Source of the DNA: Candidatus Eiseniibacteriota bacterium | Lineage (GTDB): Bacteria > Eisenbacteria > RBG-16-71-46 | Direction of reading: 5' to 3' | Length of the DNA: 64,000 nucleotides | NCBI GenBank assembly: GCA_036505355.1 | Contig: DASXTP010000105.1 | Coordinates: 2,613-66,612 of the forward strand | In this document: piece by piece, positions 6,245-64,000 of the stretch | Layout: each line of letters opens with the position of its first letter | Numbering within the stretch: the stretch's first letter is position 1 | Translations under genes and position numbers: made by a program | Notes under the pieces: generated by a model | Database searches by the model: none | What the model saw: the letters and a program-made list of their open reading frames with translations, nothing else | What the model was told of the DNA's origin: nothing

Positions 6245-8111
6245 GGGCCGGCTCCAGCAGCCGGAACTGCTCCATGGTGATGGTCCCCGCTGGGCAGCGA
6301 TCGGCACAAAGTCCACATCGGATGCAGACCGTCTCGTCTTTGATCAACGCAGTGCCCGAGCCACCTTGCTTGGCGAGCAGCGCCGCAGCGGTCTCCCCGT
6401 GTTCCGTGCGCACCAGATCCCGCAGCGCCGGATCGGCCGCGAGCTCCGACAGCGGCAGGAAGCTGATGCAATCCTCCGGACACACGTCGGCGCAGCCGCC
6501 GCACAGGATGCACTCGGTGCCCTGCTCCGCATCTTCGTGAAACACGGTGTTGACCCAGCAGTGGAAGCAGCGCGAGGCCTCGCGTTGCGCGTCCGCCTCC
6601 GAGAAACATTGCTCGATTTCAGCGATGCCGACCCGCCGCTCGATCGGCAGGGCCGGTGGACGCTGGCGAGGCACACCCTCGTAATCCAGCACGCGCCGGT
6701 ATCCGGGCAACGGTTCGATGAGCACTTCCTCAGGCGGCAGCGGGAGTGCAGAACCGCGTAGATAGGTGTGGATCGAAGCGGCGGCCTTCTTGCCGTCGGC
6801 GACGGCCTCGATCGCGATGCGTGGTCCGAACGCGGCGTCGCCCCCAGCGTAGATGCCCGGAGCGCTGGTAGCGAGCGTCGTCGGATCCACCTGAAGCGTA
6901 CTGCGCGGCGTCACCGCCACGCCGTCCTCCGGCTGCAGGAACGACAGATCGCAGGCCTGACCGATGGCGAGCACGATCGTGTCCGCCGCGATCGCCAGCT
7001 CGGTGCCGGGTACGAACGTGGGATTGAAGCGGCGCTGGGCGTCGAAGACAGCAGAGCACTCGATGGTCTCGAGACCGGTCACGGAGCCCGCCTCGCCGAG
7101 AATGCGTTGCGGGCCCCGCCCCGGGTGGATCACGATGCCCTCCCGCTGCGCCTCGCGGATCTCCTCGCGGTCGGCCGGCATGGCCTCGAGCGACTCGAGG
7201 CACACGATGTGAACTTCCTTGGCGCCAAAGCGGATCGCGGAGCGCGCGACGTCGAACGCCGTCACGATGTTGAGGCCCGGATGGATGACCTCCTCCCGCG
7301 CCGGAGCCCGCAAGGCGGAACGGGCCACGTCCACCGCGACGTTCCCGCCGCCGACGACCAGCACGCGCCGGCCGAGCTCGACCCGGTAGCCCATGTTGAC
7401 GTTCAGCAGGAAATCCACGCCCTTGAGGACCCCGTCTAGATCGGCGCCGGGAATCTCGAGATCGCGGCTCCGCTGCGCGCCAGGGGCGAGAAAGACGGAC
7501 CGGAAGCCCTGGCGGCGCAGGTCCGACAGCAAGAAATCACGGCCGAGGCGGGCCCCGACCTTGAGTTCGACGCCGAGGTTGAGGATCGCGTTGATCTCGA
7601 GCTTGATCAGCTCGCGCGGCAGACGATATTCGGGGATCCCAAGCCGTAGCATCCCTCCCGGCACCGGCTGAGCTTCGAAGATGGTGACCGGGTAGCCGAG
7701 AAGCGCCAGGTCGTGCGCGGCCGCAAGCCCCGCCGGGCCTGCGCCGATGATCGCCACGCGGTCCTCCGGGTAGCGCCGCAGACGATCACCGTAGATCTCC
7801 TTCAGCAGATCCACGTCCATCATGCTCTCCACGCCGAAGCGCTCGGTGACGAAACGCTTGAGCGCCCGGATGGCAATCGGCTCGTCGAGCGCCCCCCGCC
7901 GGCACGCCGGCTCGCAGGGCGCGGCGCAGATGCGACCACAGATGGACGCGAGCGGATTCGGCCGCCGCGCCACGGCGTAGGCCTCGCGGTACTTCCCCTC
8001 CGCGATCAACGCAACGTAACGCCCGGCCTCCGTGCCGACGGGACAGGCCTTGAAGCAGGGGAAGTTGCTCTCCAGCCACCCCCGGTCGACGAGGCGATCC
8101 GAATCGGACAC
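6237..8111 (-). CDS. NAD(P)H-dependent FAD oxidoreductase of the glutamate-synthase small-subunit (GltD) family fused to 2x[4Fe-4S] ferredoxin domains
   Basis: N-terminal Cys cluster (CFKACP...CGRICAAPCEPAC). Two Rossmann GxGxxG motifs (IIGAGPAGLAAA, VVGGGNVAVD). C-terminal CILCGGCADVCP and CIRCGLCADRCP ferredoxin motifs. Confidence 0.75.
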   Translation of the reverse strand: MSDSDRLVDRGWLESNFPCFKACPVGTEAGRYVALIAEGKYREAYAVARRPNPLASICGRICAAPCEPACRRGALDEPIAIRALKRFVTERFGVESMMDVDLLKEIYGDRLRRYPEDRVAIIGAGPAGLAAAHDLALLGYPVTIFEAQPVPGGMLRLGIPEYRLPRELIKLEINAILNLGVELKVGARLGRDFLLSDLRRQGFRSVFLAPGAQRSRDLEIPGADLDGVLKGVDFLLNVNMGYRVELGRRVLVVGGGNVAVDVARSALRAPAREEVIHPGLNIVTAFDVARSAIRFGAKEVHIVCLESLEAMPADREEIREAQREGIVIHPGRGPQRILGEAGSVTGLETIECSAVFDAQRRFNPTFVPGTELAIAADTIVLAIGQACDLSFLQPEDGVAVTPRSTLQVDPTTLATSAPGIYAGGDAAFGPRIAIEAVADGKKAAASIHTYLRGSALPLPPEEVLIEPLPGYRRVLDYEGVPRQRPPALPIERRVGIAEIEQCFSEADAQREASRCFHCWVNTVFHEDAEQGTECILCGGCADVCPEDCISFLPLSELAADPALRDLVRTEHGETAAALLAKQGGSGTALIKDETVCIRCGLCADRCPAGTITMEQFRLLEPAHV

Positions 8112-8118
8112 CGGATGC

Positions 8119-8709
8119 CTACTTCTTCATCGCGAAGTCGGCCGCTGTCGCCCCCGCGATGGTGACGGTCTTGCCGACCTCGGCTTTGAACCTCGGGTGC
8201 CAGACCTTCACGGTGTAGGCGCCGTCGGGGAGGCCCTTGATGGCATAGGCGCCGGTCTTGTCGGTGACGGCGAACCAGGGGGTCGGAAGCACGACGACGA
8301 AGCCTTCCATCTCGGCGTGCACGTGGCACAGAAGTGTGGCGTTGCATCGCGTCTTGAACGTGTAGCTACGAATCTGCCCCTGCGGCCAGCTCCCCAGGTT
8401 GAACTGCTCGCAACACTTGTCGGGCGAGAAGACGTTGTGGAGGACCTGGTCGCCATTGAGGAAGTCGACCGTGGTCCCCATCAGCACGGGTAGGACGTGG
8501 GGCGTGAACACCAGGTTCTTCTGATTCATCTTGGCGTGAGTCGTCGGCGCCGGGAACTTTTTCCCGGCGATCGCGTCGATATAGACGACCGCGTCGGCGT
8601 TGTTCTTCATGCCGGCCACCGTGACGACCCCTTTGAGCTCCCCTGCCGCCGCGGCCCAAGCCACCACGAACGTCAACACGGCACATCCCATGCCGGACAA
8701 GAGTTTCAT
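8119..8709 (-). CDS. secreted blue copper protein (cupredoxin, type-1 Cu site) with carboxypeptidase-regulatory-like C-terminal segment
   Basis: Signal peptide MKLLSGMGCAVLTFVVAWAAAAG. Putative Cu ligands H (LHNVFS, as in plastocyanin PHNIVF) and C-x2-H-x2-M (LLCHVHAEM, amicyanin-like spacing). C-terminal TGAYAIKGLPDGAYTVKVWHP. Confidence 0.6.
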   Translation of the reverse strand: MKLLSGMGCAVLTFVVAWAAAAGELKGVVTVAGMKNNADAVVYIDAIAGKKFPAPTTHAKMNQKNLVFTPHVLPVLMGTTVDFLNGDQVLHNVFSPDKCCEQFNLGSWPQGQIRSYTFKTRCNATLLCHVHAEMEGFVVVLPTPWFAVTDKTGAYAIKGLPDGAYTVKVWHPRFKAEVGKTVTIAGATAADFAMKK

Positions 8710-8744
8710 GCCTCTTCCTTTCGTCGGTCGGCCGGTGACTGAGA

Positions 8745-10067
8745 TCAGAATCCGATGATGACGCCGAGCGTGCCTCCCTCATTCGTGAACTTGCCGCCCG
8801 GCTCCTTCACCCAGGTGCCGGCCAAGAACGACTTGACGTTGGCGCGGGCCAGGCCGTTGACGGTGAGCGATACCTGCTCGGTCTTCTCGTCGGCGATCTT
8901 GAGCGACTCCCACCTCCCGGCCGGAATCAGCCAGGGAAGCGCCACCCAGGACAGTTCCGCGAATTGGTTCTTGATCTTGACGTCGGTGATCGTCGGATCC
9001 GCCACGAAAAGACGGTCGTCCTTCCGGTCCGTGTATCCGGCGCGCGCCATCAGGTCGAGGTAATTCACGGCCATGTCGCCCCCGGCCATTCGAAACGGAT
9101 CGCGGGCGTTGGGGTCCAGGGGATCTCCCCCTTCGAGGATGCTCTTGCCCTTGTAGACGAACCCGGAGAGCGTGAGGGAGGTCTCGCTCCACGGCTTGGG
9201 GTTGGTCGGCAGCGCCGCTTCTGCGCCACCGCTGGGAACTCCGTCGAACGGCAGCCCGCCGAGCTTGTAGGCCAGCCGACCGTACACGTCCTTCGAATTG
9301 TCGCCGATGCTTCCCGATCCCTCCACCACACCGGCGTTGTAGAGCACGCGGTGCTCGAGCATTCCGTAGGCCTCGAGACCTTGCTGGAAGCCATCGGGAG
9401 CCCAGGGGTTGTCGCCGGCGGACTCCGTCAAGACCAGCGGTTCCTGGTCCAGGATGGAGCGGTGCGAGGACAGCAGCATGATTCCTGGCTCGAAGGAGCC
9501 GACCTTGAACTGCAGGGCGGGCGAATCGAGCGGGCGCACCAGCAGATTGACGCGCTCCATCTCGGTCGCGATCTCGCTCCCGTCGCGGGCGAACACAACC
9601 GATCCCCAGAAGGAGAAATGCTCGTCGAGGGTCCCGGCGCCCAGAATTTCGAGCTCGCCGCCCATACCACCAAATGTGGTGGTCTTGGTCGCGTGATCGT
9701 AGTCGACCGCGCTCGTGTAGAGGACAGCGACCGGCGGCATCCCGGGGATCTCTCCCGGCCAGACCGCATGCGGCCAGAGCTTCTTGTAGCCCTCAGCGCC
9801 GATCGAGACCGGAGGGATCTTCGTCATTGCCGCATCGTTGCCCCCAGGAAAGCGGTAGCCATTCTGTCGGAATGCCTCGCCGAAGGGAGTCAGCGCGGGG
9901 ATCGCGACGTGGCAAGTCTGACAGCTCGTCTGGTACTTCCGCGCAAACGCCGGAATCGTGTAGGCATTCCGGGGCGCGATCAGCGCCGCCGAATACAGCA
10001 CGATCAGCGTCAGCCCGAACACGGTACGTACGTCGAACACCATCGGCTTGGGTCCTTCTCGTAGCAT
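8745..10067 (-). CDS. cyc2: Cyc2-like fused monoheme cytochrome c / outer-membrane beta-barrel porin
   Basis: Signal peptide then a single CQTCH heme motif about 45 aa from the N-terminus (AFARKYQTSCQTCHV). The remaining ~380 aa have alternating beta-strand character and end in the OMP-type terminal ...GVIIGF. Size (440 aa) and architecture match Cyc2 of iron oxidizers. Confidence 0.6.
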   Translation of the reverse strand: MLREGPKPMVFDVRTVFGLTLIVLYSAALIAPRNAYTIPAFARKYQTSCQTCHVAIPALTPFGEAFRQNGYRFPGGNDAAMTKIPPVSIGAEGYKKLWPHAVWPGEIPGMPPVAVLYTSAVDYDHATKTTTFGGMGGELEILGAGTLDEHFSFWGSVVFARDGSEIATEMERVNLLVRPLDSPALQFKVGSFEPGIMLLSSHRSILDQEPLVLTESAGDNPWAPDGFQQGLEAYGMLEHRVLYNAGVVEGSGSIGDNSKDVYGRLAYKLGGLPFDGVPSGGAEAALPTNPKPWSETSLTLSGFVYKGKSILEGGDPLDPNARDPFRMAGGDMAVNYLDLMARAGYTDRKDDRLFVADPTITDVKIKNQFAELSWVALPWLIPAGRWESLKIADEKTEQVSLTVNGLARANVKSFLAGTWVKEPGGKFTNEGGTLGVIIGF

Positions 10068-10196
10068 GGCCCCTCCTCGCGTCAGCGGGACTTTCGAACG
10101 AGGACGAGGCTAGAAGGACAAGGCGAGCGTCACCATCCGCGGAACGAATCATTCTTCTGATGCGGATGCATCAGAAGTCTGCCAGCCGAGGAGGGC

Positions 10197-10868
10197 TCAG
10201 AGCAGGTGGGTGCGAAGCGCCAGCGAGACTGCCTCGAGCTTGCTGTGGACGTCGAGCTTGCGGAGGATGTTCTGAACGTGGTTCCGTGTCGTCGTAACGC
10301 TGATGAACAGTGAATCGGCGATGCCCTGAGTGCTCGTTCCTTCGGCCAGAAGAGCGAGGACCTGGACTTCGCGCGGGGTCAGCACCGGCGACGGGGGCAA
10401 CGACGGCTCGTTGGCCGCGGGAGCCGACACCGGTGGGGCGTGTTGCTGGGTCAGGATTCGGCGGATCAGCTGGTCGACATCGCGGCGACGATCGACCCGC
10501 TCCAGGAAGTGGATCAGCGTGTACTGCCGCGCGCGAGGGCCTGGCATCACGACGATCGAGAAGCTGGCCGGGACGGTCTCGCCCGACTCGTTGCGGACGT
10601 CGAGCTCGAAGTGGCGTACCGATTCGTGTCGTTCGACCATGAACGTCAGGGCGCACTGGCGGTCGCAGAAGCGGTTACCGAAGACATCTCGCCCACAGAG
10701 GATCTCATGGCAGGACTTGCCGAGGACCTGGGAGGCGGGATAGCCGAGCATCTCCTGGGCACCCTTGTTCCAGATGGCGATGCGCCCCTTCTCGTCGGTC
10801 GCGAAGGCGGCCGCGCCGGCGCGGCCGATCACGTCCAGTGGGTCCACGATCAACGCATCCTTTCGCCT
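10197..10868 (-). CDS. LuxR-family transcriptional regulator with N-terminal PAS sensor domain (start uncertain)
   Basis: C-terminal LuxR HTH (LTPREVQVLALLAEGTSTQGIADSLFISVTTTRNHVQNILRKL). PAS-like segment (IAIWNKGAQEMLGYPASQVLGKSCHEIL). Upstream part of the long ORF looks non-coding. Confidence 0.65.
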   Translation of the reverse strand, partial: RRKDALIVDPLDVIGRAGAAAFATDEKGRIAIWNKGAQEMLGYPASQVLGKSCHEILCGRDVFGNRFCDRQCALTFMVERHESVRHFELDVRNESGETVPASFSIVVMPGPRARQYTLIHFLERVDRRRDVDQLIRRILTQQHAPPVSAPAANEPSLPPSPVLTPREVQVLALLAEGTSTQGIADSLFISVTTTRNHVQNILRKLDVHSKLEAVSLALRTHLL

Positions 10869-11269
10869 CTGCGCGAATCCTCTCCCCCGCGCCTCGTCCA
10901 GCGCGCAACGAGAGCGGGCCAATGGTCCTACCTCATCCCACAGGAAGGCAGCGGGATCGTTGGGCCCTGGCGCGGCTGGAGAGCATAGGCACTCGGACCC
11001 TGCTTTCGACGAAAAATCAGCGAATCGAATAGCGGACCCTCGCCCTACCACTTGGCCATGCCGCATCAACAAACTGCGGGGTAGAGACTTATGGCGCACT
11101 CGGGGAGCGAAAACCGACCCGAAAGATCCGACAAGACCGCTGCGGCGACCCCGCCACGGGTCGCCACTCTTACCCCCCGTCCAGACCTAGCGCGCGGGCG
11201 GCGCATTTTGTCGCAGCTTTTCCCCCAGCCGCTTCGCCCAGTCCAGCGACAGCGCGATCTCGCGGCGCT

Positions 11270-17528: not shown

Positions 17529-18377
17529 TTACCCCGTGACCCCCGCCGCCTGCTTCAGCGGCCCCAACACGGTGATCGGGACGTCGAGGTCTCCGAGCTC
17601 GGTTCCGCGTCGGGGCCCGTGATAGTCCGAGCCTCCGGTCTCGAGCAGCCCCAGACGGTTGGCGAGGCCGTGCAGGCGCTTCATCGTCGCGGGCGTGTGC
17701 TGCGGATGCCACACCTCGATGCCCTTGAGGCCGACTGCCGCCAGGCTCTCGACCACCGCCTGCGAGATCATCGAGCCGGGGTGCGCCAAGACGCTGACCC
17801 CCTGGGCCGAATGGATCAGCGCGATCGCTTCCCGTGGCGCGAACGCCGGTCGCGGGATGAACGCCGCACCGCGCGCGCTCAAATAGCGGCGAAAGGCGTC
17901 CTCGAGGTCGTGCGCGTGGCGGGCCTGGATGAGCGCCTCGGCGATGTGGGGCCGGCCGACGACACCCGGCCCGGCCAGTCGCAGCACCGCCTCCGGATCC
18001 ACCGGCGCTCCCAGCTCGCCCAGCCGCTTGACGATGTCGAGCGCGCGCTGACGTCGATCGGACCGGAAGCGAGCCAACCGCTCGTGCAACGGCTCGAATT
18101 CAGGATCGAGATAGTAGCCGAGGATGTGGAGGTCGGCGCCGTCGGAGGTCGAGGACAGCTCGATCCCCGGCACCAGCTCGAGAGCCGTGCCGGCCGCCGC
18201 GCGAGCGCGCGGCAGCGCCTCCAGGGAATCGTGGTCGGTGACGGCCAGCGCCGAGAGGCGTTTCTGGATCGCCACCGCGACCAGTTCCTCGGGCGACAGC
18301 GTGCCGTCGCTGAAATGGGTATGGGCGTGTAGGTCAACGTACCGGCCGCCCGCCGTGGGGGCCGGCCGCCACATCAC
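17529..18377 (-). CDS. PHP-domain metal-dependent phosphoesterase
   Basis: VDLHAHTHFSDG N-terminal PHP motif, further His/Asp motifs (TDHDS, HPG, GGSDYHG). ATGA overlap with the upstream TPR gene. Confidence 0.75.
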   Translation of the reverse strand: MMWRPAPTAGGRYVDLHAHTHFSDGTLSPEELVAVAIQKRLSALAVTDHDSLEALPRARAAAGTALELVPGIELSSTSDGADLHILGYYLDPEFEPLHERLARFRSDRRQRALDIVKRLGELGAPVDPEAVLRLAGPGVVGRPHIAEALIQARHAHDLEDAFRRYLSARGAAFIPRPAFAPREAIALIHSAQGVSVLAHPGSMISQAVVESLAAVGLKGIEVWHPQHTPATMKRLHGLANRLGLLETGGSDYHGPRRGTELGDLDVPITVLGPLKQAAGVTG

Positions 18378-47243: not shown

Positions 47244-50200
47244 GTCGCCGCCTTTCCCCAGCGCACCCGAAGCTCCGGGAAGCGCTCCTGAAGCCGCGCG
47301 ATCAGCGCGTCGTCTTCGGCCACGCGGAAGCGCCGGGATCGCAGCGCCCGCCGCAGGTGGTTCGGCCCCACGATGTGTAGATACACCTCCGATTCCCCGG
47401 GGCACGACGACAGGACCTCGTCCACCCCGACCATCCAGTCCTCGCTGAGCTGCTCGGCTCGCATCTCGATGTGGAGGTGCCGGCGATAGGCGCGCTGCGC
47501 GTCTTCGTACGGACCCACTTCGGTGAGCAGCAACCGCACCGGCCGCTCCTCCCGCACCTCGACTCGACCGGTGGCCACCACGACGCGATCCGCCACCAGG
47601 TGCGAGCGCGCCGCCTCGAACGCATCCGGGAACACCGTGCATTCGATTCGCCCGCTCAAATCCTCGAGGGTGATCACGGCCATGCGTTTGCCGCCTCGCG
47701 TGGTGATCGGCTTGACGTCTCCGATCAAGCCACCCACCCGGACCTCGGAGCCGTCTTCGAGCTGGGCCGACTCCGCCACCGAGTGAGTCGTGATCCGCGA
47801 CAGCGACTCGCGCAGCGGCTCGAGCGGGTGCTCCGAGAAATAGAAACCCAACACCTCCTTCTCGCGCGTGCTGCGATCCCGCTGGGTCCACGCCGGAACG
47901 TCCGGCAGCGGAGGCGCGACCACCGCCACGCCCCCCTGATCGGTCCGCTCCCCGAACAGCAGCGATTGCCCGCTTTGCCGCTCGCGGCTCATCGCCGCGG
48001 CCAGCTCGAGCATCGGCCCGGCCGCGGCGAACAGGGCGCCGCGCTCGGGCCCCAGTCCGTCGCACGCCCCCGCCGCCACCAGGCTCTCCAGCACCCGGCG
48101 GTTCACCGCTCGACCCTCCAGCCGCCGTGCCAGGTCGAACAGGTCACGGAAGGGCCCGCCCGCCTCGCGCGCCGCCACCAGCACCTCCACCGCCGATTGC
48201 CCGACGTTGCGCACCGCGCCGAGACCAAACCGGATCTGCCCTTCCTCGAGCCCGAACGTCCACTCCGATCGGTTCACGTCGGGGGGCAGGAGTTCCAGGC
48301 CCAGCCGGCGGACCTCCTGGATCAGGGTCACGATCCGCGCGCTGTCGCCCATCTCGCTGGTCAGGGTGGCGGCCATGAACTCGGCCGGGAAGTTCGCCTT
48401 GAGGTAGGCGCACTGGTAGGCGAGGAGGGCGTAGGCGGCGGAATGGGAGTTGTGGACGACCAGGCCGTTGGCCACGAAATTGTGGTCTACCTCGACGGTG
48501 AGATCGTAAGTGTCTTCAAATCCGCGCGGCTCGATCGAGGTGACGCGGTCCCAGAAGACGTCGGAACAGGCTATGTCCATGAGACGACGAGAGTCGAAAA
48601 AGCGGGCGAGCCTCGCCAACGTGGAGCGTCGGAAGCCACGCTTGAGCCGTGAGCCGTTCCCCGTGGACTCGCGCATCGACACGCCCGATGCTTCCTCGAG
48701 TTCTCGCCACTTGAGCCCCAGCCTGACCCTCTCTTGCGCGACCCATCTCCTGATCTCGGGGGGGATCGTGTCCCGGCTCGTGCGATCAGGTGCCGCATCG
48801 GACACGCGGGCTCTGAGCTGTCCCACTTGTTTCTCTCGGCCGACGATGTGGGGCACAATCGTCTCGAGGAACGTCCGTACCGTATTCTCTCCTAGAAGGT
48901 TCACCGTGAAGCCCCGTTTGAGCCCGCCGCGGTATTTGAACTGTTTCCTGTGGATCCCGCTCACCATCCCGAGCCGCAGCAACAGGGTCTGAACGCCGCG
49001 GGCGAGGCCTTCCGACGAGGTTGCATGGAAGGGGACGGCATTCGTTCGGTTTGCAATGAAGCCGTCGCCGGCCCACAGCCGCCCGAGGAATATCTCGAGG
49101 TCACAATTACGGAGGAGAAAGACCTCACCCGGAATGCGTTTTTCCGTGGCCCTGCAACCGAGCACTCCCAACCGCTGCGCCCACTGGAACGCCCCCGAGC
49201 GTCGCACGGGAGCATCCAGCACCAGTGCGAGATTGCCTTCCGTTGTCGCGAGGTACTCGTCCGCGACCTCTCGAACTCGGCCTGCCGATGGACCCAGATT
49301 GGCGCAGACCTCCATCCTGCCGCCCGGTCGGGTATCGATCCTCGCAACCGTATCGGGAAAACAAGCGATCGCCCGAGCAAAGTCGTCCACCAGCGCCCGG
49401 TCATTGCCGTAGAAGTAGAGACTCGTGGGATGACAGGTGTTGCCCTCGGCGATCAAGCCTGCCAGCGTGATCAACTCGTGCCTGGGCCATGTCCGCCTCC
49501 CCGCTACTTGCAGTCGGCGGGCAACCGCGACCCGATCACCGAGCTTCAACTCGGCCAGATGCTTCCAGCCATCGAGTGTCCGGAACGGATGATTGGCCGT
49601 CGCCGTGATGCGCTTCCCCAGCGCGGTCTGGAGCTCATAGACGAGCTTGCGCCCGTTCCAGACCACGTCGGTAACCTCGCGTGGTCGTAATCGTAGATTC
49701 GCGTCCAGAGCGTGCACCTGGAACGGCCTGCGCTTTTCGAAAAGCGACCGCACGGTCGTCGTCTCACCGGTTGCCGCATGAATGACCTCGGTATCCCCCG
49801 TGAGACAGCGGTTGAACCCGTAGCCGGCGAACTTCTCCATGGTGGCGAAGATCTTCTCGGCCTTCGCCGCCGAGATCTTGCGGTGCCGGCAGCCTTCGAT
49901 GAACGCCAGGCGCTTGGCTTCCATTTCCTCGGGTCGCTTCTTCCCCATCGCCCTTCGCAGCTCGTCGGCTTGGGCCATGGAGAACCCTGCCAGCACGTTC
50001 GCGGCCTGCATGACCTGCTCTTGGTAGACGAACACGCCGTACGTGGCCTTGAGGATCGGCTCCAGGTCGGGGTGGTCGTAGGTCACCACCTTGCGGCCGT
50101 GCTTGCAGTCGATGAAGTAGGGGATGTTCTCCATCGGCCCGGGACGATAGAGCGCGTTCATCGCCACCAGGTCTTCGAACACGGTGGGCTTGAGCGGCCG

Positions 50201-52033
50201 CAGGTAGTCGCGCATGCCGCTCGACTCGAACTGGAACACGCCGACCGTGTCGGCACGCTGGAACACCTCGTAGGCCGGGGCGTCGTCCTTGGGCAAGTCC
50301 TGAAGATCGATCGACACGTTGTGATGGCGCTTCACCAGCTCGACCGCCCCGGCCAGCACCGACAGGGTGCGTAGCCCGAGGAAGTCCATTTTGAGCAGAC
50401 CCGCCTTCTCGACCGACTTCATGTCCCACTGCGTCGTGATCGACTCGTCCTTCTGACGGCACAGCGGCACGTAGTCGAGCAGCGGCCCGGGGGTGATCAG
50501 CACCCCCGCGGCGTGGGTCGAAGCGTGGCGCGCCAGGCCCTCCAGCACCCTGGCGCTGTGCAGCAGCTTGGCGTAGGCCGGTCCCCGCTCCGGAAGGTTC
50601 TTGAGCTCGGGCGACAGCTCGAGCGCCCGCTCGAGCGTCATGCCGAGCCCGTCCGGCACCAGCTTGGCGACCCGGTCCACGTCGGCGAACGCCAGGCCCA
50701 GGGCCCGGCCGACATCGCGCACCACTCCCTTGGCACCCATGGTGCCGAAGGTGATGATCTGCGTGACGTTGCCCTCGCCGTACTTCTGGCGCACGTACTC
50801 GATCACCTCGCCGCGCCGCAGGTCGTCGAAGTCGATGTCGATGTCGGGCATGCTCACGCGCTCGGGGTTCAGGAAGCGCTCGAAGATCAGGCCGTGGCGA
50901 AGCGGGTCGATGTCGGTGATGTGCAGGACGTACGCCACCAGCGAGCCCGCCACCGAGCCGCGTCCCGGGCCGACACCGATCCCGCGGCTGCGCGCGAAGG
51001 CGATGAAGTCGCGCACGATCAGGAAGTACGACGCGAAGCCCATGCGACAGATCACGTCGAGCTCGTAGTCGAGACGCTTGCGCACCTCGTCGCCGATCTC
51101 GGCCAAGCGCGTCTTCAGCTCCGCCGCGGCCAGCTCGCGCAGGTAATCCTCGGCGCTCGCGACGCCGGCCGGCAGCGGGAACTCTGGCAGCAAAGGCTTG
51201 CCGAAGTGGAGCTGCAGGTTGCAGCGCTCGGCGATCGCCACGGTGTTGCGGATGGCCTCGGGGAACTCGGCGAAGGCCGTCTTCATCTCGTCGGCCGACT
51301 TGAAGTACACCTGGTCGGTCTCGTAGCGGAGCCGGTTCGGATCGCTGACCGCCTTGCCGGTCTGGATGCACAGCAGCACGTCGTGGGCGTCGGCGTCCTC
51401 GTGACGGAGATAATGACAGTCGTTGGTGGCGACCAGCGGGATGCCGGTGCGCTTCGAGAGCGCGGCCGCGCGCTGGCGGATCTTCTCCTCGATCGCGAGC
51501 CCATGGTTCTGGATCTCGAGGAAGAAGTTCTCCGCCCCAAACAGCTCGCGGTAGAAGACCGCAGTCTGGAAAGCGCGCTCCTCGTTGTCCTCGGCGAGGT
51601 CGGCGCCGATCTCTCCCTTGGGACAAGCCGACAGCGCCAGCAGTCCCCCTGCATATCGCGCAAGGACCTCGTGGTCGACCCGCGGCTTGTAGTAGAAGCC
51701 CTCGAGAAAGGCGAGTGACGACAGGCGCATCAGGTTGCGGAACCCGGGCTCGTCGCGCGCCAGCAGCACCAAGTGGTGGGAGGTCTCCCGGGTTCGGTCC
51801 TGGCGCCGGCCGCGGGTGACGTAGGCCTCCATGCCCACGATCGGCTTGACCCCCGCGCGGCGCGCCTCCTGGTAGAACTCGACCGCGCCGAACAGCGCGC
51901 CGTGGTCGGTGAGCGCCAGGGCCGGCATCTTGAGCTCGGCGGCGCGCTCCACCATGCGCGGCAGCGGGCTCGCGCCGTCGAGCAGGGAATAGTCGCTGTG
52001 GTTGTGGAGGTGGACGAAGTCGGAATGTTGCAT
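47240..52033 (-). CDS. dnaE: DNA polymerase III alpha subunit (DnaE), interrupted in frame by a 453-aa intein
   Basis: N-terminal PHP domain (HLHNHSDYSLLDG), polymerase core, OB-fold tail. Host motif KFAGYGFNR / SHSAAYALLAYQ is split by the intein. Confidence 0.9.
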   Translation of the reverse strand: MQHSDFVHLHNHSDYSLLDGASPLPRMVERAAELKMPALALTDHGALFGAVEFYQEARRAGVKPIVGMEAYVTRGRRQDRTRETSHHLVLLARDEPGFRNLMRLSSLAFLEGFYYKPRVDHEVLARYAGGLLALSACPKGEIGADLAEDNEERAFQTAVFYRELFGAENFFLEIQNHGLAIEEKIRQRAAALSKRTGIPLVATNDCHYLRHEDADAHDVLLCIQTGKAVSDPNRLRYETDQVYFKSADEMKTAFAEFPEAIRNTVAIAERCNLQLHFGKPLLPEFPLPAGVASAEDYLRELAAAELKTRLAEIGDEVRKRLDYELDVICRMGFASYFLIVRDFIAFARSRGIGVGPGRGSVAGSLVAYVLHITDIDPLRHGLIFERFLNPERVSMPDIDIDFDDLRRGEVIEYVRQKYGEGNVTQIITFGTMGAKGVVRDVGRALGLAFADVDRVAKLVPDGLGMTLERALELSPELKNLPERGPAYAKLLHSARVLEGLARHASTHAAGVLITPGPLLDYVPLCRQKDESITTQWDMKSVEKAGLLKMDFLGLRTLSVLAGAVELVKRHHNVSIDLQDLPKDDAPAYEVFQRADTVGVFQFESSGMRDYLRPLKPTVFEDLVAMNALYRPGPMENIPYFIDCKHGRKVVTYDHPDLEPILKATYGVFVYQEQVMQAANVLAGFSMAQADELRRAMGKKRPEEMEAKRLAFIEGCRHRKISAAKAEKIFATMEKFAGYGFNRCLTGDTEVIHAATGETTTVRSLFEKRRPFQVHALDANLRLRPREVTDVVWNGRKLVYELQTALGKRITATANHPFRTLDGWKHLAELKLGDRVAVARRLQVAGRRTWPRHELITLAGLIAEGNTCHPTSLYFYGNDRALVDDFARAIACFPDTVARIDTRPGGRMEVCANLGPSAGRVREVADEYLATTEGNLALVLDAPVRRSGAFQWAQRLGVLGCRATEKRIPGEVFLLRNCDLEIFLGRLWAGDGFIANRTNAVPFHATSSEGLARGVQTLLLRLGMVSGIHRKQFKYRGGLKRGFTVNLLGENTVRTFLETIVPHIVGREKQVGQLRARVSDAAPDRTSRDTIPPEIRRWVAQERVRLGLKWRELEEASGVSMRESTGNGSRLKRGFRRSTLARLARFFDSRRLMDIACSDVFWDRVTSIEPRGFEDTYDLTVEVDHNFVANGLVVHNSHSAAYALLAYQCAYLKANFPAEFMAATLTSEMGDSARIVTLIQEVRRLGLELLPPDVNRSEWTFGLEEGQIRFGLGAVRNVGQSAVEVLVAAREAGGPFRDLFDLARRLEGRAVNRRVLESLVAAGACDGLGPERGALFAAAGPMLELAAAMSRERQSGQSLLFGERTDQGGVAVVAPPLPDVPAWTQRDRSTREKEVLGFYFSEHPLEPLRESLSRITTHSVAESAQLEDGSEVRVGGLIGDVKPITTRGGKRMAVITLEDLSGRIECTVFPDAFEAARSHLVADRVVVATGRVEVREERPVRLLLTEVGPYEDAQRAYRRHLHIEMRAEQLSEDWMVGVDEVLSSCPGESEVYLHIVGPNHLRRALRSRRFRVAEDDALIARLQERFPELRVRWGKAAT
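48449..49807 (-). mobile_element. DnaE intein with LAGLIDADG homing-endonuclease domain (coordinates +/-1 nt)
   Basis: Intein starts CLTGDTEV (block A Cys), ends ...DHNFVANGLVVHN followed by extein Ser (blocks F/G). Internal LAGLIAEGN and LWAGDGFI dodecapeptide motifs. 453 aa. Confidence 0.85.
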
Positions 52034-54158: not shown

Positions 54159-57100
54159 TCACGGAATCACGACTAGGCGCTGGTCGAGGTGCGTCGAGCC
54201 GCTCGAGAAGCGCACGAAGTAGAGGCCCGCGCGCGCCCGATTTCCGTTTTCGTCCCGCCCGTTCCACTGCGCCAGTCCCTCTGTTCCAGTTCCGAGGCTC
54301 AACTCCGCGCGTCGCCGACCCGACACGTCGTAGATCCGGATCACCTGCGGTGATCCGGCCTGACCCAACGCCGCGCTCCAGCGGAACGTCACCGGAAGCC
54401 GCGACGGGTGGCCGAGGATCGTGCATTGGAGCCCGCCCGGCGGTGTCGCAGTCTGTGGGCTCCCGTCGTACAGGTGGCTCCCGGTGCGCGCGAAGTTGCC
54501 TCGGGCGGTGGGCCACGGTTGTGCCGTGGCGGCGAACGAGCCGGGACCGGCGTCGTAGACATAGAAGATCGGGTCCGGGCCGCCCGTGATCACCTCGGTG
54601 GTGCCGTCACCGTCCAGGTCGACGAGGGTCGGGAACTTTCCCGCTCCCCCCGGCTTGGGGAAGGTGGCGAGCGACTCGGCCAGGCTCGTGAGGCCGGTGA
54701 GTCCCGCCCCGCGCAACACCAGCACTTCCGGAGCGGCGCCGCCCTTCAAGTGCCCCAGCACCGGCGAGCCCACAATGGGTGCAACCGCGAGCGGCCTGGG
54801 CCACGGTGGCTCCAGGCTCGCGCCGCTCAGCTTGCGCGCCTCGACGCCGTTGTTCGTGGCCACCACCGCCTCGTCTTCGCCGTCCAGGTCGAGATCGCCG
54901 AGCGCCACGTCGAGGCCTAGCGACACCGATCCGTTCAACGGGACCGAGAAGTCGGCGAACTCTTGGCCGGCCCATGAAAGCCCATGGAGTCGGTCGTTGG
55001 CCGCGATCAGAATCACGGGCTCGCGGTTGGCGCCGCGTCCCGTCAATGCCGGCGCCGTCGGCGAGCCACCAAGGGCGACCGGCCAGCCCGGGAGCAGCCT
55101 TCCATCCTTCCGCACCGCCGCCACGATTCCGTTCGCGGTCGCCGCCACGATCTCGACACCCGCCAGGCCGTCGAGGTCGGACAGGGCCACCGGCAGCACC
55201 CCTGATCCGGTCGCGATCGTGATCGGGAATCCGCCGACCGGCGTTCCATCCGCGTGCCAGGCCCAAAGCGTCCCGTCGCCGGCTCCGCAGACCACCTCGG
55301 GCAAGCCGTCCCCGTCGAGATCGCCCAGCGCGGGGCCACCCACCATCCCCAGTCCTCCACCCGGCTGCGGCCAACCGGGTAGGGGCTCGCCCGAAGACCG
55401 CAAGCCAGCCACCCAGCCCTGCGGGGAGCCAAAGGAGCCAACGAAGAGTCCCACGCCTCGACCACCACCGAGGTCGCCTGCCGCCAAGCTACCAGCAGGG
55501 ATGCCGGGCAGATTCGACTCCACCAGGGTGTCGAGCGTGGCCCCGTCCAGGATCAGCAGGCGCTGGTTGGTGGTGACGACGGCCATGCGAGGAGACCCCC
55601 CGGTCGGGCTCGGCAGCACCACCATCGCTCCCACGACCTGACCCCCGAGGCCAATGGCCGTCGAGCCCCCGGTCTCGCTGAGCGCACGTGCCAGATCGAG
55701 CCGGCCGCTCCCATATTGTCCGACCAGGGTCGGATTCAGGGCGCTGATGTCGTCCGCGGTCTCGGTCAGCCTAAGAAGCGCCGCCATCGGATGGAGCAGC
55801 CGCAAGCCCAGGGCGCGCTGCCTAGCCTGGAGCAGCGCGACCGCCCCCGAGACCAGCGGCGCCGAGAACGAAGTGCCGTTCACGCCCCGTGCGTAGTCTG
55901 GCTGGCGCAGCCCGACGCTGTCCGAGAAGACCGCCGTGACCCCCGTCGTGCTGATGCCCACTCCGGGTGCGGCGAGATCGACGTCGGGGCCGGTGCTGGA
56001 GAATCCCGCAATCTTGTCCTGGGCATTGGTGGCAGCCACCGAGATGACGTCACGCCGAGTCACGAGGTAGTTGTTCGCAGAGTTGTAGTTCCCCGCCGCC
56101 ACCACCACCGTGACCCCGTTACGAACCGCATCGGTGACCGCGGCTTCGAGCCCCAGCTCGTGGACACTCTCCCAGGAGCAATTGATGACGTGCGCCCCCA
56201 TGCGCGTGGCGTAGCGAATCGCGCAGGCCGCGAAGTCCATGCGTACCACCCCCCCACCACGGGCATAGGCCCATCCCATCCGCAGCGGCATGATGCGCAG
56301 GTTCCAGGCCGTGCCGGCAACGCCGATCCCGTTGTTGGTGAGCGCACCGACCAGTCCCGCCACTTCCGTGCCGTGACCTTCAAAGTCGCTGGGGTCGTTG
56401 TCGCAGTCGCGCCAGTCCTCGCCCGGGCGCACCTCGTCTGCCAATGAGTCTACGTTCACGAAATCCCAGCCGTGGACATCGTCCACGAACGCCGGGCAGT
56501 CCAGGCACTCCGGGATGGTGATGCCGTCGTCATCGATCCCGGACAACCCCGCTTTTTCGGACCAGTTGGTCCAGATCTGCCCAGGCAGCCCGGCCACCGT
56601 GCCTCCGAGATCCGGATGGTACGGAAGCACCCCGGTGTCGAGCACCGCGACCACGATGGCGCTGTCTCCGGTGGTCACTTCCCAGGCCTCTGGGGCGTGG
56701 ATGTCGAGCCGCGAGTCCTGGTAGTACCAGTACGACTCCGACCACAGCGAGTCGTCGGGGCACGCCGGCGGGCACACCGCGGCCACCGGCAGAACGGCGA
56801 TGGGGCCGGCGGCCGCCAACTCGGCCGAGCCGCCAAAGGCGGCCAGGGCATCTTCGAGCTGCAGTCCCCGGGGCAGATGGGCGATATAAAAGGAGGTGAA
56901 GTCGGGGTGCCCGGAGCCGGGCGGGGGCGGAAGCTCGCCCCGGAACTCGGGTTCGAACCAGACCCCACCGAGGTCGCGGGCGATCCGGTCGAGGCCTGGA
57001 ACCCCGAGGGAGAGCCGCCGAATCCTGGGTCGCGCCCCGAGCCGAGCGGCCGCTGCGGCTCGAGGCGCGAGCTGGATCTCGAGCACGTCACCCTGGTAGG

Positions 57101-59347: not shown

Positions 59348-59423
59348 GTCCCTATCGTCTAGAGGCCTAGGACACCGCCCTTTCACGGCGGCAACACGGG
59401 TTCGAATCCCGTTGGGGACGCCA
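59348..59423 (+). tRNA. tRNA-Glu (anticodon UUC)
   Basis: Cloverleaf: acceptor GTCCCTA/TGGGGAC with encoded CCA, D-loop TCTAGAGGCCTAGGA, anticodon loop CTTTCAC, T-arm ACGGGTTCGAATCCCGT. 76 nt. Confidence 0.85.
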
Positions 59424-60443: not shown

Positions 60444-60860
60444 ATGTTCGCCAAGCGACTCTTCCATGTCTCAGCCGCAGTCCTTCTTCTGGCCCTTGCG
60501 TACCACCTCGGGGTACGCACCACCAGCGCCGCACCGCCGAGCCAGGAAGTCGCGGTACTCGCGGGTGAGGTTCCCGATGGAGGAACGATCCCACTTCCCC
60601 ACTATCAGGACGGCAGCGAGGCACTTGAGAGTGAGTGTCGCTGGCTTGTGAGCTTGAAGGTGCGGAGCAACAACACCAATTTCCTTCCGAACTTTGAACG
60701 CTGCGACACCGACGGACGCACGGTGCACGTCTACTGGTGTCAAAACAACTGCAGCGGGGGACGTGACTGCACTCTTCCCGGAGAAGGGTGTGGCACGCCG
60801 GCGCACCCGTGCACGGCGAACTACATAATCATAGCTACGCGTAACACGAAGGCTCACTAG
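60444..60860 (+). CDS. small secreted cysteine-rich protein (138 aa, 10 Cys)
   Basis: Signal peptide MFAKRLFHVSAAVLLLALAYHLGVRTTSAAP. Cys pattern CRW...CDTDGRTVHVYWCQNNCSGGRDCTLPGEGCGTPAHPC. GC content below genome average. Confidence 0.45.
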   Translation: MFAKRLFHVSAAVLLLALAYHLGVRTTSAAPPSQEVAVLAGEVPDGGTIPLPHYQDGSEALESECRWLVSLKVRSNNTNFLPNFERCDTDGRTVHVYWCQNNCSGGRDCTLPGEGCGTPAHPCTANYIIIATRNTKAH

Positions 60861-60987: not shown

Positions 60988-61473
60988 ATGGCGCATAGGC
61001 GCCGGCTGCTGACCCTCCGGGCCTACGCCCGGCACCGGCGCTGCACCCTGTCCACGGTGCAGAAGGCGGTCGCCACCGGGAGGATCGCGCTCGGGCCCGG
61101 CGGCCGGGTCGATCCACTAGAGGCCGACATCGCCTGGCAGGCGAACACCGGACCGCGGCGCGACTCGGCCAACGGCAATGGCCACGCGGCGCCGGGCACC
61201 GTGGCAGCGGCGGCGCGCGAGGTGCAGCTGGCGCGGGCCCGGCTGCTGCGACAGGAGTATCGCAAGCGCAGCCGCGAACTGGTCTCGCGACGCCGGGTCG
61301 AGCGGACGCTCTTCAACTTTGCCCGCCGGCTCCGTGATCGGATCTTGGCAGTGCCGGACCGGGTCAGCGCGATAGCCGCAGGCATGACGGATGCGTCGGA
61401 GATACACCGGTTGCTGACCCGCGAACTGGAAATAGCCTTGGTCGCGCTCGCAGACGGGGACCCGACAACGTAG
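60988..61473 (+). CDS. phage terminase small-subunit-like HTH DNA-binding protein
   Basis: N-terminus RRLLTLRAYARHRRCTLSTVQKAVATGRIALGPGGRVDPLEADIAWQANTGP follows the common small-terminase HTH pattern (LT..EYA...GVS..AV.KA...GRI.....G.ID...AD..W). High GC3. Confidence 0.5.
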   Translation: MAHRRRLLTLRAYARHRRCTLSTVQKAVATGRIALGPGGRVDPLEADIAWQANTGPRRDSANGNGHAAPGTVAAAAREVQLARARLLRQEYRKRSRELVSRRRVERTLFNFARRLRDRILAVPDRVSAIAAGMTDASEIHRLLTRELEIALVALADGDPTT

Positions 61474-61523: not shown

Positions 61524-61660
61524 ATGCCGCGACGGGGGCGACCGAAGTTGAACGCAGGCTGGAGCACGCCGCTGGGCGCGTGGATTGCGTCGTACGGGCG
61601 GGAGCGCCTGGCCGCCGACCTGGGCCCGCGAGTGACGGCCGCGTCTACGAAGGGCGATAG
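61524..61660 (+). pseudogene. 5' fragment of an ORF (MPRRGRPKLNAGWSTPLGAWIASYGRERLAADLG...) truncated where the lower-GC cassette begins
   Basis: Coding-like GC3 for ~45 codons, then abrupt loss of codon bias at ~61650, coincident with the 3' end of the minus-strand gene 61645-62349. Confidence 0.25.
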
Positions 61661-62349
61661 TAGATCATCTGCCGCTGCCAGCCCTCCAACACCGCATCAG
61701 CGGCGCGAAACTCAAACAACTCGTACAGTTCGTTGGCGAGGTTGCGTGCCTCCCTGGCGAGCTCGGCATCGCTTGTGCCGGGCCGCACAAGAAGGTCTGC
61801 GGTAAAGGGGGCCTCGGTATGAGCGACGTAACGACTGCTCGTGCCTCCGCGGTTGGGATCGTCTACCACGAGGCGGCGGTCCTTCAGACCACCGACTTCC
61901 AAGAGGGCTCGGAGATCCTCCCCTGGGCAAACCGCCTGGGCGTACCGGGAAGCGAAATGCGCAAACTCTGTCATTCGATAGACGGTGTCTCCGATACCCA
62001 GGAGCTTCTCCCCGGGCTCAACGTGGTCTTCCAACAGCCCAAGCTGGAGCGCTGCACCGTAGTCCGCGCGCATCCCGGCAACGTGGAGGAACTGCCCGCT
62101 CAGAAAAGCGCACCAGATCTCGCGGAAGTAGTTCCATTCTGTGGTCTGCCAGACGCGATCCGACTCGATCACCACGTTGTGCTGAAGGCTCACGTGAGGA
62201 TAGTCCCAGCCCCGGAAATTGACCGCGATCCCGTTGAGCGCCACCTTGATTGCCAGCTTGTCTCCCCAGCGCTTCGGTTGCTCGATTGAAGGCAGCAATC
62301 GCGCTTGCCAGTAGCCCTTGGACTTCAGGGCTGCGATGAACTCCTTCAC
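61645..62349 (-). CDS. hypothetical protein (234 aa), last gene of the lower-GC cassette
   Basis: No recognizable catalytic motif. Start overlaps the upstream AlbA_2-like gene stop by 4 nt (ATGA-type coupling). GC ~60%. Confidence 0.5.
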   Translation of the reverse strand: MKEFIAALKSKGYWQARLLPSIEQPKRWGDKLAIKVALNGIAVNFRGWDYPHVSLQHNVVIESDRVWQTTEWNYFREIWCAFLSGQFLHVAGMRADYGAALQLGLLEDHVEPGEKLLGIGDTVYRMTEFAHFASRYAQAVCPGEDLRALLEVGGLKDRRLVVDDPNRGGTSSRYVAHTEAPFTADLLVRPGTSDAELAREARNLANELYELFEFRAADAVLEGWQRQMIYYRPS

Positions 62350-63041
62350 GGCAGGCCCTCGACCTCTTCGTCATAGCGGGATAGCGCAGGCCTCGGCTGC
62401 GCCGGCAGAGCCCCAACAAGCCCCACGTGACGGGCGAGTCCAACCCATCGGGCGACGGCCTTATCCGTTGCGAGGCCAATCACTGCGCGCATGTCCTCCT
62501 GAAACGCCACTTCCCGAGACTCTGGTTTCCGGAGGGAGCGCACATAACAGCCCCCTTGTCTCAGCACGTTCCCATGGTCCTTCTTGCACAGGACCGGGAC
62601 CTCAGCGAATTCGCTAACCACGATCACTCGGAACGTACGCCCTTTGTACCGGCGCACCTCCAATGAGAGTTCCACGCTAGGGTCTGCGAAGCCGGAGACG
62701 ATTCCAGAGAGCCGATCGAAGTCCCACGACTTGGCGTGCGCGCTGGTCACTCCGGTCGGATTTAGGGTCTTGTCCCGATTCTCGGAGACACCAACGACTA
62801 CAACCCCGCTGTCGCGGCGGTTAGCAAATGCTAGGATCGCGCGCACCAGCTTCGCCCGAAAATGAGCATCGCCAAGAGAACCGGACGACTTGAATTCAAC
62901 GCCGTTGGTTTCGTGCCCCTGTTCGATTAGTTGTGCTATATCGTCGTCAGTCATTGTGGTCTCGCCATTTCGAATCGAGTTCCTCTCGCCCGACGCGACT
63001 TGGCCGGGGGCTGGGAAGCTACCACCGGCGCCGGCGGACAC
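62346..63041 (-). CDS. AlbA_2 / Schlafen-like putative DNA-binding domain protein (start at 63041 or the internal ATG at 62955)
   Basis: DIAQLIEQGHETNGVEFKSSGSLGD matches the AlbA_2 (divergent-AAA/Schlafen) N-terminal motif (L...GES..vEFK). No intact Walker A is visible. Confidence 0.5.
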   Translation of the reverse strand: MSAGAGGSFPAPGQVASGERNSIRNGETTMTDDDIAQLIEQGHETNGVEFKSSGSLGDAHFRAKLVRAILAFANRRDSGVVVVGVSENRDKTLNPTGVTSAHAKSWDFDRLSGIVSGFADPSVELSLEVRRYKGRTFRVIVVSEFAEVPVLCKKDHGNVLRQGGCYVRSLRKPESREVAFQEDMRAVIGLATDKAVARWVGLARHVGLVGALPAQPRPALSRYDEEVEGLP

Positions 63042-63702
63042 GCCGTCGCAGTCGCCTGAGCCACGGTCGGTTCCACCAGCGATTCGCGACCCAGAGCAAG
63101 GCGTGAATTCGCTCTCCGGAGCGTTCGAGACGTTGGAATTGGTCTGCCACGCTGGCCAAGCCCATAGTCATACTCTCCGGAATCGACACGCCCCGGTCCG
63201 CAAGCCTTGATATTCCATCATCAACAACGACGGCGCTCTGCACCGCGATTGCCAGGTACATGTACCACTTCCGGACTCGGCCGGCGACCGCCTGGTCGGA
63301 AAGAGACGCGAGATCGTCCGAAAGCGGCGCGGGAATCCTGGGCTCGAAGGGGGCCATCAGGATGCGCGTCACGCGTTCGACCTCGCGGAGGATCACCGCC
63401 GCCGCGCTGCAGTTACGAATCTGCTCGGCCAGGTGCCCCATGAGCCTCGCGCGCGCCTGCTGTTTCTGCCTCCGGCTTGTCCACGACCAACCAATAAGGC
63501 TGAGCATCGCCGTAAGGAGAGCGCCGGCTAACACCCCCGCGAGCTGGCTCTCCAGGAACGGAGTCGGGGGAAGCTGGATCGCCTTCGGCGGCATTAAAAC
63601 GTGGACTTCCGCCCACACGGTGTCCGGGTACGGCACCATGATTGTGTCGCGAACCACCACGGTCAGCGTGTCATGGATGATGGTGGGAACCAGTGCGGTC
63701 AT
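63019..63702 (-). CDS. hypothetical membrane protein (one TM helix, cytoplasmic C-terminal domain)
   Basis: TM LAGVLAGALLTAMLSLIGWSW followed by a basic stop-transfer (RRQKQQARAR). Overlaps the downstream gene start by 22 nt. Confidence 0.45.
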   Translation of the reverse strand: MTALVPTIIHDTLTVVVRDTIMVPYPDTVWAEVHVLMPPKAIQLPPTPFLESQLAGVLAGALLTAMLSLIGWSWTSRRQKQQARARLMGHLAEQIRNCSAAAVILREVERVTRILMAPFEPRIPAPLSDDLASLSDQAVAGRVRKWYMYLAIAVQSAVVVDDGISRLADRGVSIPESMTMGLASVADQFQRLERSGERIHALLWVANRWWNRPWLRRLRRRVRRRRW

Positions 63703-63712
63703 CGAGGCAAGG

Positions 63713-64000
63713 TCAACGGTACCGCGCCTTCACGCTGCCGAAGGTGGATTGCTGCGTGGGCGTGGTGCCGTCCCAGAAGTTGCCGACGTAGCGAAGGCTG
63801 CCGCCGCCTCCCCCGCTATCCATGTACCGGGCGAAGATGTCACCATTCGGCGTCATTACCGAGAACATGCCGTTGGCCCGATTCGGGTCTATCCCCGTTC
63901 CTTCTGCCGCGAATCCGCTCACCATGCTGCCCGACTGCGCTCCCGCATTCCGGGCTCCCAGGTGGTAGGCAATCGCGAGGCACAGCAGCCCCGCGCAGAC
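63713..64000 (-). CDS. partial CDS (C-terminal part; gene starts beyond the right edge of the window)
   Basis: The frame is open to the window end, and the C-terminus ends ...GNFWDGTTPTQQSTFGSVKARYR. First gene of the four-gene cassette. Confidence 0.4.
   Translation of the reverse strand, partial: VCAGLLCLAIAYHLGARNAGAQSGSMVSGFAAEGTGIDPNRANGMFSVMTPNGDIFARYMDSGGGGGSLRYVGNFWDGTTPTQQSTFGSVKARYR

Follow-up and report, generated by a model that had tools for sequence, protein, structure and literature searches.

The question raised by this locus is whether a stretch of lowered G+C content downstream of a tRNA-Glu gene in a Candidatus Eiseniibacteriota bacterium encodes an immune system and, if it does, which of its genes would make up that system. 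The stretch lies at 61645-64000 of a 64,000-nucleotide (nt) piece of contig DASXTP010000105.1, which is referred to here, at its full length, as the window. It carries four genes on the minus strand, designated G1 to G4, as had been stated in an original prediction made from the sequence letters; that prediction treated the four genes as one operon and as a candidate novel defense or abortive-infection system. The best reading of the evidence described below is that two of these genes, G2 and G1, belong to the prokaryotic Schlafen anti-phage nucleases in a split form, in which G1 would act in trans as a sensor or regulator. A defense role is plausible, given the precedent set in 2026 by prokaryotic Schlafen (pSlfn) proteins and given the domain, predicted fold, and motif of G2, and by analogy with that precedent a defense function of the module is likely. 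The proposal of a new kind of system did not hold, as the module belongs to a family already described, of which it is a split variant.

G2 is predicted to be a Schlafen-type nuclease

Prokaryotic Schlafen nucleases with an Ex4(E/D)xK motif have been described as anti-phage effectors, and the motif has been identified as catalytic in them (Perez Taboada et al., Nat Microbiol 2026, PMC13056530). G2 matched the Pfam family SLFN_AlbA_2 (PF04326) with 39.6 bits against a cutoff of 25.3 (E = 8.7e-10; profile positions 1 to 109 of 118), in agreement with the AlbA_2 (Schlafen-like) domain recognized in the original prediction. Two gene callers placed the start of G2 at the ATG at 62954, and the equivalent methionine was the start in most of 22 aligned G2 homologues; the mechanical open reading frame (ORF) extends to an upstream GTG at 63041 (62346-63041). 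Residues E15, E20, and K22 were invariant among the 22 homologues, and the Ex4ExK motif was found in 88 of 91 related loci, the remaining 3 being N-terminally cut ORF calls. The motif aligned with ESQSIEFK of SLFN11 (7fex_A). Structure prediction with AlphaFold2 (AF2) gave a model of G2 with a predicted local distance difference test score (pLDDT) of 89.8, and a Foldseek search with this predicted model returned 21 matches at E<=1e-3, which included 3lmm, 2kyy, the Schlafens SLFN11, SLFN13, SLFN5, SLFN12, and SLFN14, and the tRNase domain of SAMD9. The domain, the predicted fold, and the motif together mark G2 as a putative prokaryotic Schlafen (AlbA_2) nuclease with an intact Ex4ExK motif. 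The AlbA_2 domain had previously been regarded as a DNA-binding module; it is better read as an RNase effector.

These features also bear on a different explanation, namely, that the pair serves a cellular function other than immunity, such as that of a regulator that binds nucleic acids or of a factor in RNA processing. Source databases name these proteins "predicted HTH transcriptional regulator," "RNA-binding domain-containing protein," or "ATP-binding protein," and such annotations would favor a role of this kind. Against it, Pfam and NCBIfam scans detected neither a helix-turn-helix (HTH) nor an ATPase domain in G1 or G2, and the subfamily as a whole retains an intact catalytic motif. The evidence from distribution, which bears on the same explanation, is considered below.

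G2 and G1 form a conserved two-gene unit

A scan of one genome per species with the AlbA_2 (G2-side) alignment yielded 80 loci, and all loci together numbered 93. The 80 scanned loci belonged mainly to Dehalococcoidia, SAR202, and other Chloroflexota; module loci were also present in Isosphaeraceae and other Planctomycetota, Actinomycetota, Gemmatimonadota, Vicinamibacterales (Acidobacteriota), Polyangiales (Myxococcota), Symbiobacterium, Latescibacterota, and Lentisphaeria. A G1-like ORF was located immediately downstream of G2 on the same strand, or was fused to it, in 91 of the 93 loci; the two loci that lacked an adjoining G1 were L048 and L082, the latter being cut by a contig end. When the search was made from the G1 side, an AlbA_2 gene was found directly upstream in every independent context recovered. 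The two genes met in an ATGA or GTGA junction in 58 of 75 non-redundant G2-G1 pairs, AlbA_2 and G1 were fused in a single polypeptide in 10 loci, and 17 of 153 representatives of the G1 family were AlbA_2-G1 fusions with short linkers; L060, L079, and P0061 are examples of such natural fusions. Moreover, the pairwise identities of G1 and G2 were correlated (Mantel r = 0.77), and 0 of 2,000 permutations gave a correlation as high. These results indicated that the conserved unit consists of two genes, G2 and then G1.

In type II toxin-antitoxin pairs and in fused sensors, such as CapRel(SJ46), a partner keeps a toxin directed at translation in check until a phage protein has been sensed. The G2-G1 module is similar to such systems in that it consists of two co-translated small proteins or of one fusion, and we therefore considered the possibility that it is a toxin-antitoxin or addiction pair, in which G2 would be an RNase toxin and G1 its protein inhibitor and which would stabilize the island or act in general stress without dedicated phage sensing. 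This is the main rival to the reading as a split Schlafen defense module. The small size of the two genes, their 4-nt overlap, their strict co-evolution, and their frequent occurrence alone among ordinary chromosomal genes would all be expected of an addiction pair, as would their carriage on integrative islands. Both proteins, however, exceed the typical size of type II components, there is no toxin or antitoxin homology, neither a fold nor a domain of a DNA-binding antitoxin (HTH, RHH, AbrB, or Phd-like) was recognized in G1 (Pfam and PDB Foldseek), and the nuclease is here the upstream gene. A sensor-effector design is a better fit both for the stable one-polypeptide fusion seen in about 11% of the family and for the attachment of G1 to a different effector head (P0096; see below), and the characterized pSlfn proteins are trigger-activated defense effectors (PMC13056530). 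Taken together, an addiction pair without phage sensing appears unlikely; it also overlaps with the split Schlafen reading in that many toxin-antitoxin pairs act in abortive infection.

G1 represents a large family that resembles a swappable accessory domain

No match to G1 was found in Pfam, PADLOC, PHROG, or NCBIfam. A word-indexed search for relatives returned only 8, and a full profile search with G1 recovered 1,570 cluster representatives at E<=1e-3 and 1,136 at E<=1e-10. The AF2 model of G1 (pLDDT of 79) showed a predicted alpha/beta sandwich, for which Foldseek found nothing in the PDB at E<=1e-3; likewise, the G1 profile had no match among PDB sequences. The conserved residues of G1 were mostly Trp, Pro, Phe, and Gly, with few polar residues and no catalytic-looking set, and G1 was less conserved than G2 (mean identity of 37% versus 50%). 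No match to G1 was found among GenBank phages, and the AlbA_2 subfamily to which G2 belongs had no relative in IMG/VR.

In one representative, P0096, the G1 domain was located behind a TIR/nucleoside-deoxyribosyltransferase-like head in place of AlbA_2; this head matched the PADLOC TIR effector model with an E value of 1.9e-7, and its Pfam matches were below threshold. The pairing with AlbA_2, the fusions, the TIR-like head, and the make-up of the conserved residues point to G1 as an accessory domain that is not itself an enzyme and that acts together with an effector head, and in this respect G1 looks like a swappable accessory domain. With G2, it would act as a trans-acting sensor or regulatory subunit. 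On a broader scale, we tentatively propose that G1 could be a large unnamed family (at least 1,136 clusters at E<=1e-10) of portable immune sensor or regulator domains that normally act in trans as separate subunits of a Schlafen nuclease and may also be attached to a TIR-like effector.

The module is accessory cargo found next to tRNA genes and on mobile islands

The G+C content of 61645-64000 was 0.623, compared to a whole-window mean of 0.689 (standard deviation, 0.024), and was the lowest among 617 sliding windows of the same size. Thus, the fall that had been reported, from about 70% to about 60%, was observed, although the level reached was about 0.61 to 0.64 and not 0.60. At third codon positions (GC3), values of 0.665 for G2, 0.749 for G1, and 0.772 for G3 compared with 0.83 to 0.85 for the flanking genes for an S8 peptidase, a phosphoribosyltransferase (PRTase), and a terminase-small-subunit-like (terS-like) protein. 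Since the drop was visible at third codon positions, the shift was not due to amino-acid content alone, and it is real but modest. Two more stretches of the window, at about 7800-11150 and about 48100-50850, had G+C contents below 0.645 (2.36-kb windows) and may be further accessory segments.

The tRNA-Glu gene that had been placed upstream of this stretch was confirmed (Table 1). The order of S8 peptidase, PRTase, SPOR protein, and tRNA-Glu was common to about 20 related Eisenbacteria contigs, none of which carried the genes that follow tRNA-Glu in the window; the downstream content varied from contig to contig, and several of these contigs broke at or shortly after tRNA-Glu. A conserved position in the syntenic core was therefore not found for the module among these relatives, and tRNA-Glu is the border between conserved synteny and a variable region that contains the module. 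Metagenome contigs L101, L123, L128, L139, L141, L144, L155, and L170 ended no more than a few hundred bases past tRNA-Glu; that so many contigs end at this point suggests a population-variable hotspot downstream of tRNA-Glu in Eisenbacteria.

Related loci provided further evidence on mobility. The closest relative of the module, with about 59% identity, was found in locus L003 inside an 11.25-kb island that also carried an integrase gene, an HTH_17 excisionase-like gene, an Ion_trans_2 channel gene, and several ORFs without assigned function. This island was bounded by 53-nt direct repeats (6455-6507 and 17706-17758; 89% identity), and the right copy was located inside a tRNA-Lys(CTT) gene, by the integrase and HTH_17 genes. 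In L007, which came from the same metagenome as the window, the module adjoined tRNA-Asn and had as neighbors a DNA methyltransferase gene (2679-4196), an M78/DUF4411 pair, a large serine recombinase gene, and genes for DUF2924 and DUF3987. In L008 (1019-7148), Cas1, a 1,049-amino-acid protein with weak family-B DNA polymerase matches, and a SIR2-like gene were followed by AlbA_2-G1, and the pair of Cas1 and the polymerase-like protein resembles a casposon-like element. A megaplasmid copy from Rhizobium beringeri (L174) was situated among DUF4145 and NTase-HEPN genes. In nine Dehalococcoidia loci (L019, L024, L032, L037, L043, L049, L053, L057, and L061), a gene for an N6_N4 methyltransferase of approximately 570 to 590 amino acids was located directly downstream of the module (at positions of about 9.2 to 11.1 kb in each locus); in L043, the sole member scanned, the methyltransferase was fused to an Mrr_cat/NA-iREase1 nuclease-like domain. 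This N6_N4 methyltransferase-Mrr protein may be a recurrent third partner or the product of a co-travelling restriction-modification gene. Within 10 kb on either side, neighbors of defense type thus comprised the methyltransferase and M78/DUF4411 genes in L007, Cas1 and SIR2 in L008, DUF4145 and NTase-HEPN in L174, and the methyltransferase-Mrr genes in the nine Dehalococcoidia loci. Apart from G1 and G2, no flanking family was common to more than 10 loci. As accessory cargo, the module moves between genomes and does so in several cases on tRNA-adjacent integrative islands.

Two divergent copies of the module were present on separate contigs of the same metagenome-assembled genomes (MAGs) in two instances (L043/L066 and L071/L080). 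Multiple divergent copies in one genome are often seen for defense genes that differ in specificity.

The distribution allows the non-immune role considered above to be assessed. The immediate neighbors of the module in Dehalococcoidia are mostly metabolic genes, six Dehalococcoidia loci have the same flanks, which indicates vertical inheritance within that clade, and about 30% of pSlfn genes lie away from defense genes (PMC13056530); each of these would be compatible with a cellular function. Such a function is harder to reconcile with a patchy occurrence over more than 10 phyla without a conserved neighborhood, with the lack of the module at the corresponding position of about 20 syntenic contigs of related Eisenbacteria, and with the presence of several divergent copies in some single MAGs. 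The atypical GC3 in the window and the close relatives in mobile islands argue in the same direction. Consequently, a non-immune role appears quite improbable.

Comparison with known systems and a proposed mechanism

The characterized pSlfn proteins (RorSlfn5/pSlfn5 and EcoSlfn7; PMC13056530) are the closest precedent. In that study, pSlfn proteins protected against phage through trigger-dependent tRNA cleavage; in RorSlfn5, an Ig-like domain senses a T5 tail assembly chaperone, and tRNA anticodon arms are cleaved. Accessory domains were fused to 97.1% of pSlfn proteins, in 55 architectures, of which a "TBP-like" class made up 1.5% and an unannotated class made up 17.2% (PMC13056530). G2 shares with these proteins PF04326 and the Ex4(E/D)xK motif, and the module shares with them a single-lobe nuclease with a variable accessory domain, the pairing of G2 and G1 being in trans here and in cis in the fusions. 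As in pSlfn5, the nuclease is more conserved than the (putative) sensor, and the patchy distribution is likewise similar, as may be the partial association with defense genes and mobile elements. The module differs in that the accessory part is usually encoded by a separate next gene with a 4-nt overlap, an arrangement for which PMC13056530 describes no two-gene system, and in that G1, which has no Pfam match, is not an Ig-like, DUF262, histidine-kinase, HTH, or DUF5929 domain. The fused AlbA_2-G1 orthologues may belong to the "TBP-like" or the "unannotated" class of that study.

Further Schlafen defense systems have been reported (PMC13462974, PMC13552941, and a 2026 preprint on Schlafen-Argonaute fusions). 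Among them is Cash, a CRISPR-associated Schlafen fused to Csx15, in which cyclic tetraadenylate (cA4) from type III CRISPR activates the protein through a Rossmann-like sensor (PMC13462974). Cash and the G2-G1 module would be alike in having a Schlafen tRNase effector under a dedicated sensor domain, a role that is proposed for G1. They differ in that G1 is a predicted alpha/beta sandwich with no Rossmann-like match and in that no type III CRISPR genes are nearby in the window. With the eukaryotic proteins SLFN11, SLFN13, SLFN5, SLFN12, and SLFN14 and the SAMD9 tRNase, G2 has in common the predicted fold (Foldseek E values of 6e-7 to 5e-4) and the ExxxxExK motif; unlike these proteins, G2 is a single 202-amino-acid AlbA_2 lobe without helicase or linker domains. 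Finally, PADLOC PDC-S50, an unvalidated single-gene candidate, matched the AlbA_2 part of G2 (E = 3.9e-5; positions 6 to 143 of 387), with only the AlbA_2 third of the model matched, and gave no match to G1 or to AlbA_2-G1 fusions.

By analogy with these systems, we infer that G1 and G2 form a physical complex in which G1 is the sensor and RNA is the target and that the module confers an anti-phage phenotype. G1 would keep the activity of the G2 nuclease dependent on an infection cue; upon sensing of a phage component, G2 would be released or activated, as in RorSlfn5, and active G2 would then cut tRNA, in the anticodon arm, or other RNA. Such cutting would shut down translation and lower the phage yield. 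In this scheme, G1 would probably be bound to G2 and would control the RNase activity of G2 in response to an infection cue.

Several observations weigh against the split Schlafen defense reading. Conservation does not extend to the third acidic residue of the eukaryotic Schlafens, which in SLFN11 is the first Asp of GVDD; G2 has Ser57 at this position, followed by Glu58. The TIR-like fusion of G1 was seen in one sequence, and the domain scores of this sequence are weak. When the gene next to the module on either side was surveyed in about 75 loci, most were metabolic or transport genes, with methyltransferases accounting for 6 to 7 of 150, and the defense-island signal is accordingly modest at nearest-gene range; in addition, PADLOC identified no known defense gene in the visible flanks of the window. 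The original prediction proposed to look beyond 64000 for an integrase or an attachment-site repeat; neither an integrase gene nor an att-like repeat was found between 59000 and 64000 or over the additional 310 bp (L002), at which point the contig ends.

G3, G4, and other neighboring genes

The features of the locus are listed in Table 1. The original prediction described overlaps of 4 to 22 nt among the four genes. The 4-nt overlap of G1 and G2 (GTGA) was confirmed and was the sole overlap within the cassette; the gap between G3 and G4 is 10 nt, and that between G2 and G3 is 64 nt, counted from the G2 ATG at 62954. The 22-nt overlap of G2 and G3 was an artifact that resulted from taking the GTG at 63041 as the start.

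Table 1. Features of the tRNA-Glu-proximal region (window coordinates)
Feature	Position	Strand	Length, basis, or remark
G2, putative Schlafen (AlbA_2) nuclease	62346..62954	-	202 aa; PF04326, gene callers, homologue starts, AF2/Foldseek
Predicted G2 catalytic motif Ex4ExK (E15-T-N-G-V-E20-F-K22)	62889..62912	-	Sequence and homologue alignment
GTGA junction of G2 stop and G1 start (translational coupling)	62346..62349	-	Sequence
G1, partner protein of unannotated family	61645..62349	-	234 aa; family search, locus survey
G3, single-pass membrane ORFan, same-strand neighbor	63019..63702	-	227 aa
G4, small putative secreted protein, partial in window	63713..64000	-	103 aa in source contig; start 24 nt past window
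terS-like gene, convergent with G1	60988..61473	+	phrog_57
tRNA-Glu(UUC)	59348..59423	+	ARAGORN and Rfam

The layout is relevant to a third explanation, in which the four genes G4-G3-G2-G1 would form one operon and one novel defense system with G3 as the effector. The shared strand, the gaps of 10 and 64 nt with one 4-nt overlap, the G+C content of all four genes below the genome average, and the G4-like gene that adjoins the module in the closest relative are the features from which such a system could be argued. G3, however, had no homologue in the 91 other module loci, and a search of 5.8 billion proteins returned only G3 itself and one weak partial match. A single hydrophobic segment spans about residues 52 to 75 of G3, the C terminus of which is Arg-rich; G3 is a single-pass membrane protein, as predicted, and its proposed role as an effector was not supported, given that it is an orphan absent from the related loci. 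A G4 homologue adjoined the module in L003-L005, and the G4-like gene of L003 (8617-8898) was divergently oriented relative to the module. Only the G1 and G2 families recurred in more than 10 loci, and the overlap of G2 and G3 that suggested coupling was the start-codon artifact described above. A four-gene system is thus very improbable; the functional unit is limited to two genes, and G3 and G4 are local neighbors outside the conserved module.

The 5' end of G4, which lies beyond 64000, was recovered, and the gene is complete in the source contig (L002, 287-598); this contig stops approximately 310 bp past the window edge. The N-terminal 45 to 49 residues of G4 were 45% identical to those encoded by an ORF at 60444-60860 (plus strand; 138 amino acids) on the far side of the module, about 3 kb away and outside the cassette. 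Their common N terminus was signal-peptide-like (MFAKR.F...LA.AYHLG.R), and from their sequences G4 and this paralogue look like members of an Eisenbacteria-specific family of small secreted proteins. The ORF at 60444-60860 and G4, on the minus strand, are convergent and bracket the terS-like gene and the module. Another G4-related gene was observed in L171 (10629-10991), between PRTase and tRNA-Glu. A 24-nt sequence (CCSGTGGTAGCTTC...) was located upstream of both G2 (window 63005-63028, minus strand) and G4 (L002, 232-255) with 79% identity and could be a common regulatory element or a chance repeat.

The phage-like remnants that had been reported next to the cassette were reduced to the terS-like gene, the product of which matched phrog_57 (E = 1.7e-24; profile positions 10 to 175 of 199) and showed similarity to Synechococcus phages S-CBS1 and S-CBS3 over short stretches only. 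Its GC3 of 0.85 was host-like, and neither a large terminase nor any further phage structural gene was found near it; it may have remained from a prophage or satellite, or it may be a gene that has been domesticated. A resident ORF at 61524-61805, which was thought to have been truncated at the insertion edge, was not called by the JGI gene caller and had no PHROG match. Elsewhere in the window, a 93-nt tRNA-Trp called by ARAGORN at 56937-57029 (minus strand) was situated inside the S8 peptidase coding sequence and, since the Rfam tRNA model scored below threshold there, is probably a false positive.

Implications

Bacterial Schlafen proteins were linked to phage defense only in 2025-2026, and those studied so far are only cis fusions from Enterobacterales, Enterococcus, and type III CRISPR loci, together with Argonaute fusions. 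The subfamily described here is widespread (Chloroflexota, Planctomycetota, Actinomycetota, Eisenbacteria, and others) and keeps the putative effector and its accessory part as two translationally coupled proteins. Its definition corrects the database names "HTH transcriptional regulator" and "ATP-binding protein" and delineates an unannotated partner family of more than 1,000 sequence clusters. The split organization is also experimentally convenient, as the subunits can be expressed singly. If G1 does represent a family of portable sensors, the G2-G1 module would be the first two-component Schlafen defense system, and G1 would be a new sensing module.

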